Assembly (NCBI GenBank): GCA_048939015.1
Contig: JBHLPW010000054.1
Location: forward strand, 1-32,239
From: Promethearchaeota archaeon
GTDB lineage: Archaea; Asgardarchaeota; Lokiarchaeia; Sigyniarchaeales; SOKP01
Direction of reading: 5' to 3'
DNA: 32,239 bases
A program made the position numbers and the translations under genes. Positions 7,409 to 28,376 of the stretch are shown piece after piece. Positions within the stretch are counted from its first letter, which is position 1; the number at the start of each line of letters is the position of its first letter. Under the pieces are notes generated by a model. The model worked only from the letters and a program-made list of their open reading frames with translations, ran no database searches and was not told the origin of the DNA.

Positions 7409-8884
7409 TTAATAACTTTTAGCGATATACACAGTACATCCTGCAGGTTTTCCACATATTAAGCATGTTGCAAAATCATGTTTCTCCTCATCGAATCTTC
7501 TTCCTCGCACAAAACCCCCAATTTCTTTCTCAACCACTTCCGCACAAGGATACGCATCCATATCTATTGAACAGAAACCACAGCATACTATTTTTCCATT
7601 ATTAATTGCTTCAATTGCCGCATCTTTTTCATAGGTAACCTCAATTTGAGACTCGAAATCTACCATAGATTTCTCTTTGATCTCGTTAGTATAATTTTGA
7701 GTAAGCTCATCTATTTTTGTTTCCATATGCTCTTTTTTTATGGTCAGTTTTGTCCCATCATGTCTTTTTACCACTAAAATCTGCTTCTTTTCGATATCTT
7801 TTGGTCCAATCTCGATTCTTAATGGGACCCCTTTTAATTCCCAATAATAAAATTTACTCCCAACTGAGAGATCGGAATCATCAAGTTTAACTAGATATTT
7901 ATCTTTTAACTTCTCGTATACCTCTTTAGCTTCTTTTAAAATCTCTTCTTCTTTCCCCTTAAATAATATTGGAACAATCACTATTTGAATTGGTGCAAGA
8001 TCAAATGGTAAAACTAATCCTTTATCATCACCGAGAAACGCAATCATAGCACCGTATATTCTACTTATCGCAGGACCATAACATGTTTGATATCCATATT
8101 TTTCCTCCCCATCTGTATCTACAAACTTTATATTGAATGGTTTTGAAAAATTCTGGCCAAGTAGATGGGTTGATGGCTGTTGCATCACTTTTCCTGAACC
8201 CATTAAAACATCTGCTGCAAACGTGGAAACGGCGCCAGGGAATTTATCCCATTGAGGCCTTTCAAAAAAGATAATAGGGATTGCAAATTCTTCTTGAAGC
8301 ATCTCATATGCCATCTCCATATCTTCTTTTACTTGGTTCATAGCATCTTCCATTGTTGCATACACATTATGGGCTTCTATCCAGTGGAATTCTCTTCCTC
8401 TGAAAAAAGGTCTTGTCATCTTTGTCTCATAGCGCCAAACTTGACATGATAAATATCTTTTGAAAGGTAGATCTTTATAGCTATGAATCCATAAAGGATA
8501 CATTTTATATAATGCCGTCTCACTTGTAGGACGTAGCGCGAGTCTCTCAGTTAGTTTACCGGAACTGCCGGCTTCGGTTACCCAAAATACTTCTGGAGTA
8601 AAACCCTCAACATGTTGTGCCTCTAAATGAAAATTTGATTCAGGTATTAGGGAAGGCATTGTCAATGGTAAATGTCCATTCTTTTCTAACAACGTTTCAT
8701 ACTTTGCATACATTTTTTTGATAGTAATTGTAGCCCATTCTCGATAAACTACAAACCCTTTAACATTATATCTAATATCCGCTAATTCTGCTTTATTTAA
8801 TATTTCTGTATACCACTCAGAAAAATCCTCTTCCTTTGAAACTGTCATTCCAGTTATAGGGGCTTCTGTTTTCTTTTTAGCCAT
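7409..8884 (-). CDS. proS: Proline--tRNA ligase, archaeal/eukaryotic type
   Basis: FSEWY, LALRPTSET, RYETKMTRPFFRGREFHWIEAH, HLLGQNFSKPF, YWELKGVPLRIEIGPKD, C-terminal Zn-binding CLIC and a terminal AKSY. Confidence 0.97.
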   Translation of the reverse strand: MAKKKTEAPITGMTVSKEEDFSEWYTEILNKAELADIRYNVKGFVVYREWATITIKKMYAKYETLLEKNGHLPLTMPSLIPESNFHLEAQHVEGFTPEVFWVTEAGSSGKLTERLALRPTSETALYKMYPLWIHSYKDLPFKRYLSCQVWRYETKMTRPFFRGREFHWIEAHNVYATMEDAMNQVKEDMEMAYEMLQEEFAIPIIFFERPQWDKFPGAVSTFAADVLMGSGKVMQQPSTHLLGQNFSKPFNIKFVDTDGEEKYGYQTCYGPAISRIYGAMIAFLGDDKGLVLPFDLAPIQIVIVPILFKGKEEEILKEAKEVYEKLKDKYLVKLDDSDLSVGSKFYYWELKGVPLRIEIGPKDIEKKQILVVKRHDGTKLTIKKEHMETKIDELTQNYTNEIKEKSMVDFESQIEVTYEKDAAIEAINNGKIVCCGFCSIDMDAYPCAEVVEKEIGGFVRGRRFDEEKHDFATCLICGKPAGCTVYIAKSY

Positions 8885-8979: not shown

Positions 8980-10158
8980 ATGAATTCAAGAGAACGTGTT
9001 CGAGCCGCACTTCATTTTAATAATCCTGATAAAGTACCTGTTTTTAATTTGATAAAAGGAGATATTGGACCTTTGATTATAACTCATTCTAAAAATTGGA
9101 ACCCTGGTTGGAATGAGGGGGAAAAAGGATTATTTCCTCATGTTAGAGGGTCTTACAAATGGAATAGACCTGAATGGGTAAAAAATAAACCAGAATATGA
9201 AGGAAATAAATGGAGAACCATCCCACATGAAGAAATTGATGAGTGGGGTTGTATTTGGAACATGAAAGGGAATGACAAGAATCAAGGACACCCTGGAAGA
9301 CCTTCTTTACTAAATTGGGATGATTTTGATACTTATTTTGAGAGATATGCTCCTGATGCGGATGATAAAACGAGATATGAATTTGCTTTGAATACAAAGC
9401 GGAATTTGAGTAATGATACATATTTTTTATTGATATTTCCTTCTTATGGACCTTCCCAAGTTGTATCTGCAATGAGAGGTTTTAATAATTATTTACTTGA
9501 TCACAAAAAAAATCCTAAAGAATTGCAAAAAGCCCTCGAAGCAGTTGCTGAATTCCAAGTAAAATGCATGAAAAATGCTATTAAATTAGGAATAAATCCT
9601 GATGGAATTTGGATAGTTGATGATTTAGGTGAACAAAAAGGTCCCTTCTTTAGTCCGAAAACATTTAGAAAAATGTATGAATCTTCCTATAAATATGTAA
9701 TCGATGAGGCTCATGCGCTAGGGATAGAGGTTCATCATCACTGTTGTGGAAAAGTAGATCCTCTATTACCTGTTTTGATTGATTGGGGTTTAGACGCAAT
9801 TGAGTTTGATAGTCCTAGAATGAGTGGATATCCTAATTTGAGTCCTTATCGAGGGAAAATTATGTTCTGGGCGTGTGCTAATATTCAATCACTTTACCCT
9901 TTAGGTACGCCTGACCAAATAGAACGAGAAGTGTGGCATATGATGAGGAATCTTGGAACAAAAAATGGAGGATATGGCGTATTTTTTTATGATGATTATA
10001 AAGACATAAATGTACCTAGAAAAAATATTAAAGCTTTAGAACATGGAGTTGAGAAATATGGAGATTATTCCACCATCCCTGCTCATTGGTGGGATTATCC
10101 TACACCAAATGAATGGAACGATTTTGAAGTGCCTCCTCTTCCACCTTTAGACACATAA
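8980..10158 (+). CDS. Uroporphyrinogen decarboxylase / MtaA-CmuA superfamily protein
   Basis: MNSRERV..AL....PDKVP N-terminus, DEWGCIW, DDLGEQ.GPFFSP, HCCG (HxCG), GTPDQIEREV, GGY. Confidence 0.85.
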   Translation: MNSRERVRAALHFNNPDKVPVFNLIKGDIGPLIITHSKNWNPGWNEGEKGLFPHVRGSYKWNRPEWVKNKPEYEGNKWRTIPHEEIDEWGCIWNMKGNDKNQGHPGRPSLLNWDDFDTYFERYAPDADDKTRYEFALNTKRNLSNDTYFLLIFPSYGPSQVVSAMRGFNNYLLDHKKNPKELQKALEAVAEFQVKCMKNAIKLGINPDGIWIVDDLGEQKGPFFSPKTFRKMYESSYKYVIDEAHALGIEVHHHCCGKVDPLLPVLIDWGLDAIEFDSPRMSGYPNLSPYRGKIMFWACANIQSLYPLGTPDQIEREVWHMMRNLGTKNGGYGVFFYDDYKDINVPRKNIKALEHGVEKYGDYSTIPAHWWDYPTPNEWNDFEVPPLPPLDT

Positions 10159-10159
10159 T

Positions 10160-10906
10160 TTAATTTAAATCACTAAAGAGTAAAGCGTCAGTAATCAGAA
10201 ATCCAATTTTTAATATAACACTATAATTTTTAGCTTCTAGAAAATCTTTTAGTTCTTCACCTATTTTTTCTAATGTCTTGGTGTCATTTTCATTAGAAAC
10301 AGAATATTTTATGATTGACCTAGCGGATTCGAATTCCTCTTTCATTGAATCTTCAACTGGATTTATCGAAACTTGATCTGCACCAGCAATTTTAGCAATT
10401 TTCTTAATCTCCTCCTCTAAAGAACCAAAAGTAAAATACTCCTTACTCCTAGACAAGAATTTTTCTGAAATTATTTTCTCTAGATTCGCCCTAGCTGTTG
10501 GATCATAAAAAGCTGTCAGTTCATTAGAACAGATTAGCTTATATTTTCCATTAATTAGACTTTCTTTATCCACTATGAACTCGATCAATTTTTCATAATA
10601 TTCTGGATCAATCTTTTGAAAGTTTTCGATATTTCGAACTAAATCCGTCAACTTATCAATTAAATCATAATAAAATTTTAATGACGATTTAATTTCAAGT
10701 TTGTCCTTCATTTCTTTTATTTCAGGATAATACTTTCTTAGAATTAGATTGATTTGTTTGTTAAACTTTGCACAAACTTGAGCTACTTCGTCTACAACTT
10801 TAACAGAATTTCTTTCCAAAAGCTCAACTAAGTGACTTTCTAAACTTGGTAATTCTTCGAATATTTCGTTGATCTTTTGCTTATACTTCTTTTCTATGTA
10901 GCTCAT
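10160..10906 (-). CDS. Hypothetical protein (helical N-terminal part, alpha/beta-like C-terminal part)
   Basis: 248-aa ORF with ATG start and normal composition. No motif recognised. Confidence 0.7.
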   Translation of the reverse strand: MSYIEKKYKQKINEIFEELPSLESHLVELLERNSVKVVDEVAQVCAKFNKQINLILRKYYPEIKEMKDKLEIKSSLKFYYDLIDKLTDLVRNIENFQKIDPEYYEKLIEFIVDKESLINGKYKLICSNELTAFYDPTARANLEKIISEKFLSRSKEYFTFGSLEEEIKKIAKIAGADQVSINPVEDSMKEEFESARSIIKYSVSNENDTKTLEKIGEELKDFLEAKNYSVILKIGFLITDALLFSDLN

Positions 10907-22460: not shown

Positions 22461-22790
22461 TTGTCAGAATTTGAACTAAAAGTATTGAAACTACTTGAAG
22501 ATATTAATGGTAAGTTAGACAAATTACTAAAAGCTGAACCTATTTCTGTAAGTTCAACAATATCGGCACCTACACCATCAACAGTTAAACCTTCTGCTAT
22601 AGTTGAGAAGCAAGAAGAAGAAGCACGAATGGAAGAAAAACCTCCTGTTGAAGGTCGCCGAATCTGCCCCGAGTGTGGAGGAACTACCTTCGCTACTCAT
22701 GAGGACAGAAGCCAAGTTTTACATCAAATGGGCGGTGTAAAGATTTACGCAAAAAAATATGTCTGCAAACAATGCGGATATGAATATTAA
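22461..22790 (+). CDS. Small protein: N-terminal coiled coil, S/T/P/E linker, C-terminal zinc ribbon homologous to the gelsolin C-terminus
   Basis: AAAGGAGA SD before a TTG start. LLEDINGKLDKLL heptads, then GRRICPECGG...IYAKKYVCKQCGYEY. Confidence 0.85.
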   Translation: MSEFELKVLKLLEDINGKLDKLLKAEPISVSSTISAPTPSTVKPSAIVEKQEEEARMEEKPPVEGRRICPECGGTTFATHEDRSQVLHQMGGVKIYAKKYVCKQCGYEY

Positions 22791-22914
22791 GATCGTTAAT
22801 AATTTTCACAAAATTTTTATTCAAATTTATTTCTTTTTCTTTAATTAATATATACTCGAAAATAAAAGTATTAAATATTACTCTTGAACAATATTTTGAA
22901 CTTTTTCACCTTTC

Positions 22915-23373
22915 TTAAAAACGACAATAGTAGGTTCTAGTAAGAATTAGAAGTAACCCACTGAGTATAGGAAAAATGAAACTAAAATTAATAATATAAC
23001 CATAAGGGTATACAAAATTCAGAGCTCCCAAGATAAATGAACTCATAATCCATAAGGAATACAAAATTAAACTTAGTATACCCCACTTCTGCCATTTTTG
23101 TGAAATATCATCTAAACTATCGGGATTTCTCCTTAAGACATAGAATGATCTTAATAGAAAAATAATTAATAAAACATAAAATAAGGAAATGATTTTCTGA
23201 GGAATATCAAGAATATTTATTCCATCTATAAAGGGAATATAACGATATCCCCAAATCCAAAAATGGTCAGTAAACTGAGAAGGGATAGAAGCAAAACTTA
23301 AAATTGGGAAAATGAACGATAATACTGTTGAAAATATCGCACTACAAAGAAAAATATACAGTACCTTCTTCAT
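22915..23373 (-). CDS. Hypothetical membrane protein (about 4 TM)
   Basis: Four hydrophobic segments and an FWIWG motif after TM1. Confidence 0.65.
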   Translation of the reverse strand: MKKVLYIFLCSAIFSTVLSFIFPILSFASIPSQFTDHFWIWGYRYIPFIDGINILDIPQKIISLFYVLLIIFLLRSFYVLRRNPDSLDDISQKWQKWGILSLILYSLWIMSSFILGALNFVYPYGYIINFSFIFPILSGLLLILTRTYYCRF

Positions 23374-23538
23374 TGCAATTAAACAACTAAATAAAGTATA
23401 AAAATATTAGGACATTTGCGGAAAAAATTAAAATTCACTTTTTAGTTATGATGCTATAATATTTTTTAGTTAGATTTTTAATTTCAATATACTTTAAATT
23501 CTTAAATATTATAATACCTATACGCGGTGTAGTATCGA

Positions 23539-24621
23539 ATTCCTCGACGGAGAATTAAGACTTATATTCAATACATTAGAAACTTCTTATTAAACAATTT
23601 TACTAACCGAAAGATTCCATATTCCGCTCAGATCGAATTAACACTACGCTGCAATAGTAAATGCCCCTTTTGTTCCATCCATTCTTTACCTGAATCAATC
23701 TTAAGAACTGATATGACCACAGAACAAATAAAGTATCTAATTGATGAATTAGCTAATTTAGGAATCCTCGCACTTTCATTTACAGGTGGAGAACCAACAT
23801 TAAGAAAAGATTTACCAGAACTAATATATCATACTGGTGTAGTTCATAACTTTATGAATGGGATAGCCACCAACGGGTATTTACTCCCGAAATTATTTAA
23901 AGAGAATAAGATGGAAGGATTAGATTATGTTTTGATCTCATTAGATTACCCAACTCCGGAGCAACATAATAAAATGAGAGGAATCAAAGTCTTTGATAAA
24001 ATAATTGAATCTATTCAATTGGCGAATAAACGAGATATCAAGACTATTATTAGTACCGTTGTTATGAAAGATAATATCCATTTAATGGAAAATATTTGCC
24101 AATTGGCTGAAAAGCTCGGTTGCTCAATAGAAATTTATCCATGTGAAGATATTATCAGAGATTATCCAAATAAAAGCTATCAAATACAAAATATTAATGA
24201 GATGATCCCTGATATATCGATTTGGGCAAATCAAATTCGATTATTGAGAAAAAAATATCGTAATATCTTAACAGATCCTTTTAGTGTAAATGTGGTTCAA
24301 AGTGGTTTCGGGGGTTATCCAACTTATAATCAAGACATTCTCCGCTGTCATGTTGCCGAAGCATACTTATTTATTAGTCACGATGGATTTATTAGTTATC
24401 CATGCAAAATTCATCCTATTGCTAAATTTAATGCTTTAAAATTTCCATTATCTACAATTTATTATTCTGATAAAGTAAAGGAAATAATGAAAATGCATGA
24501 TAATTATAAGTTCTGTAATAATTGTCGCCTGGGGTGTGCTATAGCATCATCGATACCAACACGTTGGAAAACTGTATATGCTAAATATATTAAGGGATTT
24601 ATAGATGGTGGATTAAGATAA
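23539..24621 (+). CDS. Radical SAM enzyme with a C-terminal SPASM/twitch-like Cys domain (start uncertain, possibly ATT at 23539)
   Basis: In frame upstream of the called ATG (23713) lies ELTLRCNSKCPFC (CxxxCxxC, 23650-23673). Downstream motifs are FTGGEPTLR, ATNG, ISLD, C..AEAYLFISHDG.ISYPC and CNNCRLGC. Confidence 0.85.
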   Translation: MPRRRIKTYIQYIRNFLLNNFTNRKIPYSAQIELTLRCNSKCPFCSIHSLPESILRTDMTTEQIKYLIDELANLGILALSFTGGEPTLRKDLPELIYHTGVVHNFMNGIATNGYLLPKLFKENKMEGLDYVLISLDYPTPEQHNKMRGIKVFDKIIESIQLANKRDIKTIISTVVMKDNIHLMENICQLAEKLGCSIEIYPCEDIIRDYPNKSYQIQNINEMIPDISIWANQIRLLRKKYRNILTDPFSVNVVQSGFGGYPTYNQDILRCHVAEAYLFISHDGFISYPCKIHPIAKFNALKFPLSTIYYSDKVKEIMKMHDNYKFCNNCRLGCAIASSIPTRWKTVYAKYIKGFIDGGLR

Positions 24622-24738
24622 TAGCGTGTTTTATTTTTCACATTCCTTATCTCAAGGTCTAATCAAATTATAGAAAGAAAATTAGGAATTCAAAAAATTT
24701 AATTTTAAATATATTTTTCCTAATATAGTGATTACATT

Positions 24739-25353
24739 ATGTCAAACGCAGTAATAATTATTCAAATTATGTTCATAACCATCGGTATGATAGTCTTGGG
24801 TATGATTCTTAATTATGTTTTAGGATTAAGAAAAGAAAATATGAGTGAAATGAGGAAAAAAGCATTAAACCTTCAAGAGCGTATGAGAAACGCTCAACTT
24901 TTAAACGATTATCAGATGATGGCTCAAATGCAACGTGAATCAATGCAATTTATGAAATTAATGATGAAGAAGCAATTCGTCCCAATGTGCATTAGATGTG
25001 CAATTTTTTTAGGGATATATGCAATTCTTCTATTAATTTATTCCGATTACGCGAGTGGATTATTACCATTCCCGGTGTTATTTTTCGGGAATGGATGGGT
25101 TGCATTATATTTTCTTTTTTCAATTGGATTTTCTTTACTAATATATGGAGTAAAAAAGTTATATCAAAAAGTAACTGGAAAGACAACAAAATCACAGAGT
25201 ATGTTACGAGAAATTTTGGGAATGATCTCTCCTACTCAACAAGGTGTTGGTGTTCCCTTAGAAATGACTTCTAGTACACAAACTCAATCAGATAGCTCCA
25301 TTGACATACCTCCAGAAACAAAAGAATCTTGGAAAGACCGCATTGAAGATTAA
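24739..25353 (+). CDS. DUF106 / EMC3-TMCO1-Get1 (Oxa1 superfamily) membrane insertase-like protein
   Basis: TM1, Met-rich cytosolic coiled coil (QMMAQMQRESMQFMKLMMKKQFVPM), TM2, LPFP...GWVALYFLFS TM3, followed by a hydrophilic tail. Confidence 0.8.
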   Translation: MSNAVIIIQIMFITIGMIVLGMILNYVLGLRKENMSEMRKKALNLQERMRNAQLLNDYQMMAQMQRESMQFMKLMMKKQFVPMCIRCAIFLGIYAILLLIYSDYASGLLPFPVLFFGNGWVALYFLFSIGFSLLIYGVKKLYQKVTGKTTKSQSMLREILGMISPTQQGVGVPLEMTSSTQTQSDSSIDIPPETKESWKDRIED

Positions 25354-25396
25354 ATCAACTTTTTAAACTAATTGCCGTTAAAACTACAAATCAAAA

Positions 25397-25690
25397 ATGA
25401 ATCTTAAAATTGCTTTAAATGTAGCTTTTATTGTATTGACTATATTTTTTTTAATCCTATCTTTCATGATTGATTTCTTTTTCTTTATTCCGATTATTTG
25501 TTTCTTATCATTCCCTTTTAGATCAACTAGACAAACAGGAATTAAATCTAAAACAAAGATGAAAGAATATGACTCTTATCAGGATCTTAAAAAACTAGAA
25601 GTAAGATATTGCCCTAGATGTGGTGGAGAAATATCAAAATCAATTGCGAGATTTTGCTACCACTGTGGAGAAAAATTAAATAATATTTAA
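25397..25690 (+). CDS. Membrane protein with a C-terminal zinc ribbon
   Basis: Two N-terminal TM segments, then YCPRCG.EI...ARFCYHCGEKL. Confidence 0.8.
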   Translation: MNLKIALNVAFIVLTIFFLILSFMIDFFFFIPIICFLSFPFRSTRQTGIKSKTKMKEYDSYQDLKKLEVRYCPRCGGEISKSIARFCYHCGEKLNNI

Positions 25691-25701
25691 TATGAGGTTA
25701 T

Positions 25702-26178
25702 ATGATGACAGAAAATAATGATATGAAAAGACAAATGACGCTCTATTTTTTATTTGCAGCACTTATGATCGGACTGAACTATTTAATTCAAAAGTTAAAC
25801 CAATTAGTCATAGCTCCTGCTTTCTGTCAAAATTTTGGTACAATTGAATTTTTTCATGTATTATATTGTTCAGCTATACCATATAATATGCCAGAATTAA
25901 TGGGAAGCATTATAGCAGTAGGTATTACATATATTATTAAATTTTTCTTGGATAAATTTATTGTTTTTAAAAAGACAGAAAAACAACTAAAACAGACTTC
26001 GATTGAATTTATGAAATATTTTGGATTTGCTATTTTAACCACAATAGAAAATATCGGAATTCAATTTCTATTAACAAATTTTCTAAATACACCCCTAGAA
26101 ATAAGTTTTATTGTTGCATTATCTATAGGATATTTAACAAAGTTTTTCCTTGATAGAAAATATGTTTTTAACATTTAA
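25702..26178 (+). CDS. GtrA-like membrane protein
   Basis: Four TM segments with the duplicated motif KFFLDKFIVFK / KFFLDRKYVFN typical of the GtrA family. Confidence 0.8.
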   Translation: MMTENNDMKRQMTLYFLFAALMIGLNYLIQKLNQLVIAPAFCQNFGTIEFFHVLYCSAIPYNMPELMGSIIAVGITYIIKFFLDKFIVFKKTEKQLKQTSIEFMKYFGFAILTTIENIGIQFLLTNFLNTPLEISFIVALSIGYLTKFFLDRKYVFNI

Positions 26179-26244
26179 TGATTATTAATATTTCAAGAAG
26201 GTATAATAAAAAAATTTAATAAATTGAAAGGTGTTGTTAATCAT

Positions 26245-27339
26245 ATGCCAGATGAAGATCGTGAGGAAGAAGGAGATAAATCGATCGTTGATGCCCTCTC
26301 AACACTCGGTTGGGTAGAAGAAGAGGAAGAAGAAGAAGAAACCTTAGCCACAGATGAGAATCTTAAGGAACAACTAAGTTTCTTTATAGAAGAAAATAAA
26401 AGATTAGTAGGAGAGATCACAGAAAAAAATGAAAAACTGCAGATATTAGAGGAAAAGATTCAGGAATTATCTCAAAAAACTGATGAAAAAACAGTCCAAA
26501 ATGAAGCTATAGAGAAATTATATGAAACAATAGAAAATAAAGATAGACAGATCAAAGATTTGGACTCTACTCTTGATGAACAATCTACCAAATTAAACAA
26601 GATTATTAATGATCAAATTGAAAAAATTAAGGAGTTAAATACACAAATAGAACAATCTCAATCAGATCAAACCGAAAATCAAGCATTAGAGAATAAATTG
26701 GAGGAAAAAGAGACCATAATTAAAGAATTAAAAGAACAATTGCAATTCCTTGAAACAGACTCTATTCAAAAATCTAAATTTGAAAAACTCGAATTACTCT
26801 TAGAAAAAAAAGATGAGATAATAACTGAAAAAGAAAAAGAGATTTTCACTCTTGAAAATGAAGTTAAAACAGCGAAACAAAAGATTCATGATCTCCAACA
26901 GCAAATTGAAACATTTACCTTAGTTAAAAAAGAACTTGAGATGAAAGTCGAGAGAAACAAATCATTAGCAGTAGAAATTGAAGAGAATAAACAAAGAAAT
27001 ATTACCAATCAAGAAATAATTGAACGACTTGAAGAAAAATTGGAAGAAGCTCACAATAAATCAGGAAAACTTACTGGTAAGTTTGAATTAGAACTAGCTA
27101 ATCTTCGCAGTATATTAGATGATAAAGAAAATGTAATAAAAAATTTAAGAATAGAAGCAACAAAAGCAAAAGATTTTTCTCAAGAAATTGAACAAGTAGA
27201 AGAGAAATATTTAGATGAGATTAATAAAATAAAAGATGAAAAAATGGTACTTGAATCGGAAGTTGAACAAAAAAATGATGAAATTATTGAATTGAAAAAG
27301 AAGATTAAATTAATGAGAAGAGACCTTCAAAGAATTTAA
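26245..27339 (+). CDS. Long coiled-coil protein with an acidic N-terminus
   Basis: GGTG SD at 26230-26233 favours ATG 26245. About 330 aa of E/K/Q/L/I-rich heptads with no proline after residue 2 and no ATPase motif. Confidence 0.8.
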   Translation: MPDEDREEEGDKSIVDALSTLGWVEEEEEEEETLATDENLKEQLSFFIEENKRLVGEITEKNEKLQILEEKIQELSQKTDEKTVQNEAIEKLYETIENKDRQIKDLDSTLDEQSTKLNKIINDQIEKIKELNTQIEQSQSDQTENQALENKLEEKETIIKELKEQLQFLETDSIQKSKFEKLELLLEKKDEIITEKEKEIFTLENEVKTAKQKIHDLQQQIETFTLVKKELEMKVERNKSLAVEIEENKQRNITNQEIIERLEEKLEEAHNKSGKLTGKFELELANLRSILDDKENVIKNLRIEATKAKDFSQEIEQVEEKYLDEINKIKDEKMVLESEVEQKNDEIIELKKKIKLMRRDLQRI

Positions 27340-27368
27340 AAAAAGAATAAAAAATAAATATTAAAAAC

Positions 27369-28376
27369 TTATTTTTCCCGCCATTCCACGCCGCATTCTC
27401 CGCAACGGTATTTTTTACCGTACATACGTGGATAATCAAGGATAATATTTCCTTTATCAACACTCTCATGAATCATAAGAGGGTTTTCATTTCCACACTC
27501 AGGACACTTTCGTCTCCCATCAATATGCTCTACAGTTAGGATTGAATCATCAGTTCTTCCGGGTATACCTGGAGCAGCTCCTGAAGCCCTAACTTCCGAA
27601 ATATCTGCTTTTACTTCTTCTGGAGATACATCTTTAACTTCTGATTTAAATTCAGGTTGGATGGCTGCTGCTATTCTATCATCTTCATCTTCTCCTTCTA
27701 ATACAGATTCTGCTTTTAATTGTACAGCATCAGATTCCTTATAATTTTCCCCTCGCTCTAAAGCAGAAATAAACTCTGAATCATCACCCTCTTCAAAGAT
27801 CGTTTCTTGCTGTAACCCAGCTCTATCAAAATCTATAGATCGTGCCCATTGACCAGCCTTAACTTTTTCTGTAACAGTACAGGCATTACCTTGCCATATA
27901 TAAACTTTATTACCTAAATCAGCAACAAAGCAATCTTCAGAATCTAAAGATTCTTTCTTAAAAGGAACTTGAATCATTTTCATGGCATTAATATCTTCGA
28001 ATTCCTCGGCTGAAACACGATAAAGGACATTCTTCCACTCATGAAAACCTGCCCAATCTCCAGTTGTGACATCTTTAAGAAGTGTTTTAGCATAATTTTT
28101 CTCAACAATTTTCATCGCTCCCATAGAACTAATTGCTTTAAGGAATTCTTTTGGTTCTTGACCTTGATCAACCGTAATTATTTTTGCTGCGCCTCCACGT
28201 TGTTGATCGAGGGTTCTTGCTTGAGCAGCACCAGCAGTCTTCTCATCGACAGAGCATTTATTCCCAATCCATACATAGATGGTTTTCTCATCATCTAATA
28301 AGTAGACATCTCCGCTTGAAAAGACTAATTTATTGATTTCTTTTAAATTTCCTTGCTCAATCATAAATAGTTTCAA
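27369..28376 (-). CDS. Two-domain gelsolin-family actin regulator with a C-terminal zinc ribbon
   Basis: Domain 1: FSSGDVYLLD...IYVWIG..CS.DEK.AGA..A..LD...DQGQEP.EF. Domain 2: LDSEDCFVAD.G..VYIWQG..C...EK.KA...A..I...EEGDD.EF. Acidic/Ala-Pro linker, then CPECG...CGECG. Confidence 0.92.
   Translation of the reverse strand: MKLFMIEQGNLKEINKLVFSSGDVYLLDDEKTIYVWIGNKCSVDEKTAGAAQARTLDQQRGGAAKIITVDQGQEPKEFLKAISSMGAMKIVEKNYAKTLLKDVTTGDWAGFHEWKNVLYRVSAEEFEDINAMKMIQVPFKKESLDSEDCFVADLGNKVYIWQGNACTVTEKVKAGQWARSIDFDRAGLQQETIFEEGDDSEFISALERGENYKESDAVQLKAESVLEGEDEDDRIAAAIQPEFKSEVKDVSPEEVKADISEVRASGAAPGIPGRTDDSILTVEHIDGRRKCPECGNENPLMIHESVDKGNIILDYPRMYGKKYRCGECGVEWREK

Follow-up and report, generated by a model that had tools for sequence, protein, structure and literature searches.

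Why should a Lokiarchaeal gelsolin and a 109-amino-acid (109-aa) protein with a quite different N terminus end in the same small zinc ribbon? The question is posed by contig JBHLPW010000054.1 of a Promethearchaeota archaeon (the whole stretch analyzed, 32,239 nucleotides, hereafter the window), which belongs to a Lokiarchaeal genome of 4.86 Mb and ~30% G+C. A sequence-only reading of this DNA had taken the ribbon as a distinctive module of a two-member system, in which the small protein would oligomerize through its N-terminal helix and, as a scaffold displaying several ribbons or as a competing decoy, determine where the gelsolin acts. We confirmed the underlying observation, and its interpretation is partly supported. 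Both proteins are assigned to the C-terminal "Zn" ribbon family already published for Lokiarchaea, and most members of this family in "Candidatus Lokiarchaeum ossiferum" B-35 are enriched in a Lokiactin co-immunoprecipitation (co-IP).

Both open reading frames (ORFs) are in place, and BLASTP aligns residues 63-109 of the 109-aa protein with residues 285-332 of the gelsolin at 19 of 50 identical positions (E = 1e-9). The match exceeds the cysteines, as had been noted, with GRR, CPECG, HE, Y-KKY-C, and CG-E common to both proteins. Each ribbon reads CPECG ... CxxCG with 24-25 residues between the knuckles, and the second CxxC pair ends 4-7 residues from the stop in either protein. A profile built from ten copies in the same genome scores the gelsolin ribbon at 2.6e-25 and the 109-aa ribbon at 6.7e-21. 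Across 129 family sequences the four cysteines are invariant, and the tyrosine ahead of the KK pair is conserved in at least 90% of the family. The family profile also matches residues 286-333 of chain G of PDB entry 7WHG (7whg_G), which is Loki2DGel, at E = 8e-19. CxxC pairs placed for one zinc ion, overall similarity, a C-terminal position after a linker, and the tyrosine-bearing hairpin all assign the two window proteins to the "Zn" family; zinc binding itself is predicted from the positions of the two CxxC pairs.

The larger partner, of 335 aa, is by homology a two-domain gelsolin orthologous to Loki2DGel. It matches Pfam Gelsolin in two stretches (E = 1e-27), carries an LKDV motif read after the first repeat, and aligns with 7whg_G over residues 1-335 (E = 3.6e-182); two repeats, a WH2-like motif between them, and full-length similarity to a characterized 2DGel are the hallmarks of Asgard gelsolins of the Loki type. 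More than 120 orthologue clusters have the same architecture. Akil et al. 2022 (Commun Biol 5:890, PMC9433394) presented Loki2DGel as a protein of 335 aa in which two gelsolin domains are followed by a "Link" of 69 aa and by "Zn", a domain that potentially binds zinc. The calcium-dependent severing or sequestering of actin by this orthologue comes from their biochemistry, and the ordered part of their crystal model stops at residue 226 (PMC9433394). These authors found the Zn domain to be invariably C-terminal and to occur also in small Zn-only proteins, could not find it consistently beyond Loki, noted in it an extended and conserved tyrosine-bearing loop, and proposed that the domain binds a cellular feature or complex (PMC9433394). 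Both the domain and its modular spread are in print already; what the 109-aa protein adds to this known family is one new member.

How far does this family extend? A two-sequence profile (E < 1e-6) recovered at least 10 full carriers and one truncated copy in the genome of the window. Gelsolin-type ribbons are found on the gelsolin itself, on a 65-aa ribbon-only protein (contig C51), on a 161-aa coiled-coil protein (C99), and on two proteins of 299 aa (C88) and 298 aa (C77) without recognizable N-terminal domain; the other carriers are the 109-aa protein and coiled-coil proteins on C30, C76, C102, and C14, two of which are also proline-rich. At C77:56324-56544 (minus strand), a ribbon is split into frames of 47 and 40 aa, each matching one half, and looks like a broken copy. 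All 41 genomes searched across the order hold ribbons, with 4-13 copies per genome, and when 1.84 billion representatives were searched exhaustively with a profile, 534 clusters matched at E ≤ 1e-3 and 298 at E ≤ 1e-10. Among the representative carriers listed, the ribbon lies within 12 residues of the C terminus in 138 of 148, and the N-terminal parts match essentially only coiled-coil families in Pfam. The profile search and architecture catalog that the sequence-only reading had proposed as a check thereby depict carriers with mostly coiled-coil N-terminal parts and a ribbon that is nearly always terminal, which bears out its picture of a portable module; the parts to which the ribbon is attached are unrelated. 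A ribbon special to gelsolin was rejected, since most carriers lack gelsolin domains. No Pfam family rose above its cut-off for the ribbon in the whole 335-aa and 109-aa proteins, nor did any Pfam ribbon family in eight carriers from this genome, 149 representative carriers, and seven stand-alone proteins.

When 29 ribbons are placed in a maximum-likelihood tree, a single deep division is well supported (92/98). On one side of it, clade A unites the ribbons of gelsolins with those closely related to them in this genome and in L. ossiferum; on the other (clade B) stand the ribbons borne by coiled-coil proteins, that of the 109-aa protein, and every stand-alone ribbon of the other Asgard lineages. 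With its clade-A paralogues the gelsolin ribbon shares 59-75% identity, with the 109-aa ribbon only 38%, so that, given this identity and a place in opposite clades, the two window proteins are among the more distant pairs of the family. In view of this result, the 2022 description of the domain, and the at least 10 carriers in the genome, the notion of a distinctive two-member system is not supported. In a sample of 121 genomes of the phylum, 59 match, with exactly one copy in each matching genome outside the order. The 12 non-Loki copies examined are ORFs of ~48-103 residues, ten of them of 48-66, and source names for such proteins include Heimdallarchaeaceae, Odinarchaeota, Jordarchaeaceae, Freyarchaeota, and Borrarchaeum. 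None of these copies has a Pfam family above cut-off over its whole ribbon; one scores just above the TFIIS cut-off, with only its last 12 residues aligned. Because single-copy stand-alone homologues occur beyond Loki, the distribution suggests that the stand-alone microprotein is the older form, which Lokiarchaeales expanded and fused.

The 109-aa protein has orthologues at the same position in four relatives (62-83% identity), all of which keep helix and ribbon, and most hydrophobic positions of the helix are invariant across the five orthologues. Its AlphaFold2 model combines a confident helix at residues 3-24 with a confident ribbon from ~65 to 109 (strands 77-90 and 93-102), separated by residues 25-64 at low confidence (29-42 with a predicted local distance difference test [pLDDT] score below 50; weak helix at 45-57). 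Since the predicted template modeling score (pTM) is only 0.36 while helix and ribbon are confident and the middle is not, the modules would be independent, in agreement with the layout of N-terminal module, linker, and terminal ribbon read earlier. The leucine-heptad helix of that reading stands as a confident, conserved, amphipathic helix, but its 22 residues make only about three heptads, and any coiled coil or oligomer that it forms is putative. Residues 10-23 of the protein (22488-22529, plus strand), LL..I...L.KLL, are loosely reminiscent of a WH2 amphipathic helix plus LKKV; the spacing is two residues short and the glycine varies among orthologues. An orthologue in the same genus (L035:4967-5311) has no second CxxC pair and its frame diverges past YAK, so that either this copy has decayed or the assembly is wrong there.

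The evidence that ties the ribbon to the cytoskeleton comes from the Lokiactin co-IP of L. ossiferum, for which we used the rows listed from Supplementary Table 2 of bioRxiv 10.1101/2025.11.30.690169 (log2 ratio of actin to immunoglobulin G [IgG], with adjusted p). L. ossiferum has eight ribbon carriers, six of which were mapped by accession offset, with molecular weight checked wherever a co-IP row was found. Highest among them is 2DGel1 (log2 3.97, p = 0.015), followed by a 374-aa clade-A carrier (3.85, p = 0.066), a ribbon-only protein of 57 aa (2.53, p = 0.004), two coiled-coil carriers of 404 aa (2.10, p = 0.001) and 330 aa (1.91, p = 0.012), and a second ribbon-only protein of 62 aa (1.74, p = 0.029); the ribbon-only proteins of L. 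ossiferum include accessions UYP47583 and UYP47813. Six of the eight carriers therefore have a ratio of at least 1.7, which is far above chance because this ratio delimits about the top 70 of ~1,500 rows, an estimate made from row lengths; on accession-verified rows alone, four of six carriers are enriched. The cytoskeletal association that the sequence-only reading had anticipated is thereby borne out for most L. ossiferum carriers, ribbon-only microproteins included. It had regarded a spread over unrelated proteins with no cytoskeletal association as evidence against itself: the spread was found, the lack of association was not. The 404-aa carrier (GNAMCCOK_04980; locus L053:284-1495; C1:5841083-5842294) is the counterpart of the C76 protein of our genome and, if its mapping by mass and position holds, is apparently among the ~30 most abundant L. 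ossiferum proteins in the rows listed, above Lokiactin. Neither zinc nor a ribbon is mentioned in the text of either version of this motility study (Nature; bioRxiv 10.1101/2025.11.30.690169).

We lean, somewhat better than evenly, towards a ribbon that serves as a shared C-terminal docking tag, by which its carriers would all be recruited to one component of the Lokiactin cytoskeleton. A flexible linker followed by a ~48-residue C-terminal ribbon would be the defining feature of the family, and the ribbon would dock proteins that are otherwise unrelated, i.e., gelsolin, coiled-coil proteins, helix-plus-ribbon proteins, and ribbon-only microproteins. Candidate partners are the Lokiactin filament, gelsolin or another actin-binding protein, and another ribbon. 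We infer that the ribbon itself mediates the association with Lokiactin and that the 109-aa protein behaves like its paralogues. Several observations weigh against a docking tag. The 374-aa and 404-aa carriers were mapped by molecular weight and genome position only; the 534-aa carrier is not significantly enriched (log2 0.57), and the 341-aa carrier (UYP46080) is not among the co-IP rows listed. The L. ossiferum gelsolin would co-purify through its gelsolin domains regardless of the ribbon, and since formaldehyde cross-linking was used, the enrichment of carriers may be indirect. L. ossiferum lacks an orthologue of the 109-aa protein, which is thus outside these data. The final 109 residues of Loki2DGel, Zn domain included, are invisible in the crystal with actin (PDB 7WHG), and a green fluorescent protein (GFP)-tagged tail was diffuse in human cells (PMC9433394). 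Sixty-two of the 121 sampled genomes have no ribbon, many Asgard families with actin among them, and around the stand-alone ribbon genes of 12 non-Loki Asgard genomes, gene order is kept within families, with no shared partner and no cytoskeletal theme. The isolated Zn domain of Loki2DGel did not co-sediment with rabbit F-actin (PMC9433394), and this negative result favors either a Lokiactin-specific site or an indirect association, be it via gelsolin, via a different actin-binding protein, or from ribbon to ribbon.

A broader version of the docking tag, which we put forward tentatively and hold to be rather less than evenly probable, is an Asgard-specific actin docking domain. It would descend from a ~50-residue stand-alone, actin-associated microprotein of Heimdall-, Odin-, Jord-, Frey-, Borr-, and Lokiarchaeia. 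Duplication and fusion in Lokiarchaeales would have attached the ribbon to gelsolin as well as to coiled-coil rods, of which one may exceed Lokiactin in abundance in L. ossiferum, and might have turned it into a modular network of linkers and regulators in which small carriers, the 109-aa protein for instance, tune the occupancy of a shared site.

What the fold says about function is limited. The AlphaFold2 model of the gelsolin ribbon (129-sequence alignment, mean pLDDT 84) is a long beta-hairpin (strands 18-29 and 34-41) with a short third strand. In the PDB, Foldseek ranks TFIIS domain III, RPA12, RPC11, archaeal Rpb9/TFS, and Rpp21 best (TMq 0.59-0.62, E 0.14-1), and a second, independent aligner returns ribbons of NrdR, TFIIS, Dof, TFS4, L44e, and Sec23 at Z 3-4.3. 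Since all of these scores are weak, they point to a common ribbon fold only; what the model secures is a zinc-ribbon fold of the classical kind, with no closer assignment. Membership in the TFIIS/Rpb9-type family PF01096 is not indicated, with 13.8 bits for the excised gelsolin ribbon and 11.8 for the 109-aa ribbon against a cut-off of 21, and with DYPR or MGGV at the hairpin tip in place of the TFIIS acidic pair. The S27a/eS31 family PF01599 likewise misses its cut-off of 22.3 bits on the whole 109-aa protein (20.4), and the 23.8 bits of the excised ribbon cover only profile positions 17-36 of 44, i.e., the first knuckle. A profile search of PDB sequences yielded the Loki2DGel entry as its only family match; matches to PRDM9 C2H2 fingers were rejected as summed repeats of a short K-x-Y-x-C-x-x-C-G word. 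The ribbon model also superposes on the zinc fingers of Sec23/24 (PDB 2nup_A and 2yrd; Z 2.9-3.1, root-mean-square deviation 2.0-2.3 over 39 residues), proteins that also contain a gelsolin-like domain. Kinship with them was set aside, the Z scores being no better than those of unrelated ribbons.

Gelsolin and ribbon genes are linked in three recurring forms: by fusion, as in the window, by a free ribbon gene nearby, and by divergent pairing. In two closed genomes of another family, a clade-A ribbon-only gene of 61-66 aa lies 155 bp and 2.4 kb, respectively, from the gelsolin gene, with otherwise different surroundings. L. ossiferum has a free clade-A ribbon gene 4.3 kb from its gelsolin gene, and the corresponding ribbon-only gene of our genome is on another contig than the window gelsolin. 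Divergent pairing is found on C99, where a 280-aa single-domain gelsolin (53701-54540, minus strand; BLASTP E = 2e-15 to the window gelsolin; Pfam Gelsolin 21.6 bits) and the 161-aa coiled-coil clade-A carrier (54713-55198, plus strand) are 172 bp apart, as a pairing shared with three congeners. The C-terminal ~90 residues of this 280-aa gelsolin exist as separate small ORFs in many relatives. The linkage of the 109-aa and gelsolin genes, by contrast, is general synteny within one family: a 14-kb block holds both genes throughout that family, and one relative has unrelated genes inserted into it. In the two genomes from outside the family whose gelsolin neighborhoods were examined, the genes are not paired.

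That the best structural matches are to TFIIS domain III, RPA12/Rpb9/TFS, NrdR, Dof, and Rpp21 invites the view of a generic nucleic-acid- or polymerase-type ribbon, ancestrally a small stand-alone nucleic-acid binder, that reaches the co-IP indirectly or through the stickiness of basic, abundant proteins. The domain is indeed basic (PMC9433394), one gelsolin orthologue has been labeled RNA polymerase subunit M/TFIIS by one source, and the single-copy stand-alone forms of ~50 aa elsewhere in Asgard have no cytoskeletal neighbors. We nonetheless judge this view unlikely, given the weak structural scores (Foldseek E ≥ 0.14; Z ≤ 4.3), the lack of any Pfam ribbon family at cut-off on whole proteins, the absent TFIIS acidic hairpin, carriers that are gelsolins and coiled-coil proteins and not nucleic-acid enzymes, and the high rank of six of the eight carriers among the actin co-IP rows listed, which chance would hardly produce. 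The ribbon might alternatively anchor its carriers to a membrane or a small GTPase, in which case the coiled-coil proteins would be golgin/EEA1-style tethers and gelsolin would be recruited to actin-remodeling membranes. A conserved RR before knuckle 1, KK before knuckle 2, an aromatic residue near the hairpin tip, and the succession of coiled-coil rod, flexible linker, and small C-terminal domain would suit such an anchor, as would the occurrence of an Arf GTPase and BAR proteins in the same Lokiactin co-IP and of Ras-family and longin genes near carriers on C14 and C30. By our estimate, however, four small GTPases in nine neighborhoods is about what chance provides in a GTPase-rich genome; no lipid-binding family matches the ribbon, and the co-IP is biased to cytoplasmic proteins, according to its authors (10.1101/2025.11.30.690169). 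A membrane or GTPase anchor thus seems improbable to us.

The role that the sequence-only reading had given to the 109-aa protein, i.e., oligomerization through the N-terminal helix into a multivalent scaffold or competitive decoy that places this gelsolin, would draw on the strong conservation of the helix and on genes that lie 4-12 kb apart in the four family relatives examined; if all ribbons had a common ligand, any abundant small carrier would compete for it. The distance between the genes loses weight against the synteny of their whole 14-kb neighborhood, its insertions in one relative, and the missing pairing in two genomes of another family. In addition, the 109-aa ribbon is in the other clade (38% identity; split support 92/98), the free ribbon adjacent to gelsolin elsewhere is of clade A, a type that is on another contig here, and 22 residues of helix are few for a stable coiled coil. 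The data do not support a decoy role specific to the 109-aa protein, and we consider the scaffold or decoy scenario improbable.

Features of the window that bear on the ribbon, with positions counted from its first nucleotide, are compiled in Table 1.

Table 1. Positions of the two ribbon proteins, their modules, and a neighboring coiled-coil protein in the window
Feature	Position	Strand	Remarks
109-aa protein: conserved N-terminal helix, linker, clade-B zinc ribbon	22461..22790	+	TTG start
Conserved amphipathic helix, residues 3-24	22467..22532	+	F/V/L/I/L/L spacing; AlphaFold2 pLDDT ~90
Linker, residues 25-64	22533..22652	+	Ser/Thr/Pro-rich, then acidic; pLDDT 41-66; conserved VKPS..V.KQ segment
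Predicted zinc ribbon, residues 65-109	22653..22787	+	Clade also holding stand-alone ribbons of other Asgard lineages
371-aa coiled-coil protein, without ribbon	26224..27339	+	Convergent with gelsolin gene; weak coiled-coil Pfam matches only
Putative two-domain gelsolin, linker, and C-terminal zinc ribbon	27369..28376	-	335 aa; TTG start; Loki2DGel orthologue
Gelsolin core, residues ~1-226	27699..28376	-	Two gelsolin repeats with LKDV WH2-like motif between them
Gelsolin linker, residues ~227-284	27525..27698	-	Acidic, Ala/Pro-containing; read from sequence; "Link" of Loki2DGel
Gelsolin clade-A zinc ribbon (predicted), residues 285-335	27372..27524	-	Two CxxC knuckles, long beta-hairpin, conserved Tyr

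Other neighbors are recorded here as observations in their own right. The adjacency of the 371-aa coiled-coil gene and the gelsolin gene is kept within the genus, and three genes intervene in one relative. A 97-aa protein (25397-25690, plus strand) with transmembrane segments at its N terminus and a short zinc ribbon, CPRCG...CYHCG, sits in the conserved run between the 109-aa and gelsolin genes; it has no match to the ribbon-family profile and is outside the gelsolin-type family. The radical SAM gene between both ribbon genes (23521-24621, plus strand) encodes 302 aa from its first ATG, and orthologues in relatives have 358-365 aa, a difference consistent with an upstream non-ATG start. In a Pfam tally of 87 neighbors of carriers in this genome, nothing is enriched except small GTPases, which occur at about the chance rate. 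A Ras-family gene is near the carrier on C30. On C14, another lies directly upstream of the gene for the 237-aa coiled-coil carrier, on the same strand, and a MON1/FUZ-type longin-domain protein is encoded two genes away from this carrier (L046:6894-7604, 7897-8442, and 9741-10841); this could be a cluster resembling a tether, a GTPase, and a guanine nucleotide exchange factor (GEF), or chance in a GTPase-rich genome.

The window itself is ordinary, in that it adds another orthologue of a published gelsolin and another carrier of a published domain. Its interest lies in what the family may represent. Gelsolins and profilins are the main regulators identified and characterized so far (motility study), and as late as its 2025 preprint (10.1101/2025.11.30.690169) that study called the extensions at the C terminus of Loki gelsolins "of unknown function". 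If the ribbon were an address that takes gelsolin, abundant coiled-coil proteins, and microproteins alike to a single site of the Lokiactin network, its carriers would amount to a new class of archaeal cytoskeleton-associated proteins. Such a class would be tractable, as the domain has only ~50 residues and is already made as ribbon-only proteins in a cultured organism. What is new beyond the 2022 paper is the pan-Asgard set of stand-alone homologues, the predicted classical zinc-ribbon fold, and the ranking of carriers in the listed co-IP rows, two ribbon-only microproteins among them. The function of the domain becomes directly testable because stand-alone homologues, two clades, linkage to gelsolin, and co-purification of ribbon-only proteins with actin come together.

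Among known systems, the transcription zinc ribbons (TFIIS domain III, Rpb9/RPA12/RPC11, TFS, NrdR) share with the modeled ribbon two CxxC knuckles ~25 residues apart, which hold together a sheet of three strands that includes a long hairpin, and they are its top fold matches (TMq 0.59-0.62; Z 3.5-4.3). The likeness remains at the level of the fold: sequence matches are not significant, the acidic catalytic hairpin tip is absent here, and the context is that of a C-terminal tag on cytoskeletal and coiled-coil proteins. In concept, the ribbon recalls modular add-ons of eukaryotic actin regulators, such as the villin headpiece on a gelsolin core and small portable actin-binding motifs of the WH2 kind: a gelsolin core is lengthened by a small C-terminal module on a linker, and other proteins reuse the module. 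It has no kinship with them in sequence or fold. The villin headpiece is a helical F-actin-binding domain; for the ribbon, direct actin binding is hypothetical, and rabbit F-actin gave a negative result. In Thor 1DGelX, "domain X" is another element, a coiled coil (PMC7444086). The Zn domain of Loki2DGel, MKD1-2DGel, and the discrete Zn proteins is, by contrast, the same domain as the ribbons of the window, and to its description by Akil et al. 2022 (PMC9433394) our analysis adds single-copy stand-alone homologues in many other Asgard families, a division into two clades, small proteins made of a helix plus a ribbon, and, for most L. ossiferum carriers, an association with Lokiactin in vivo that may be indirect.

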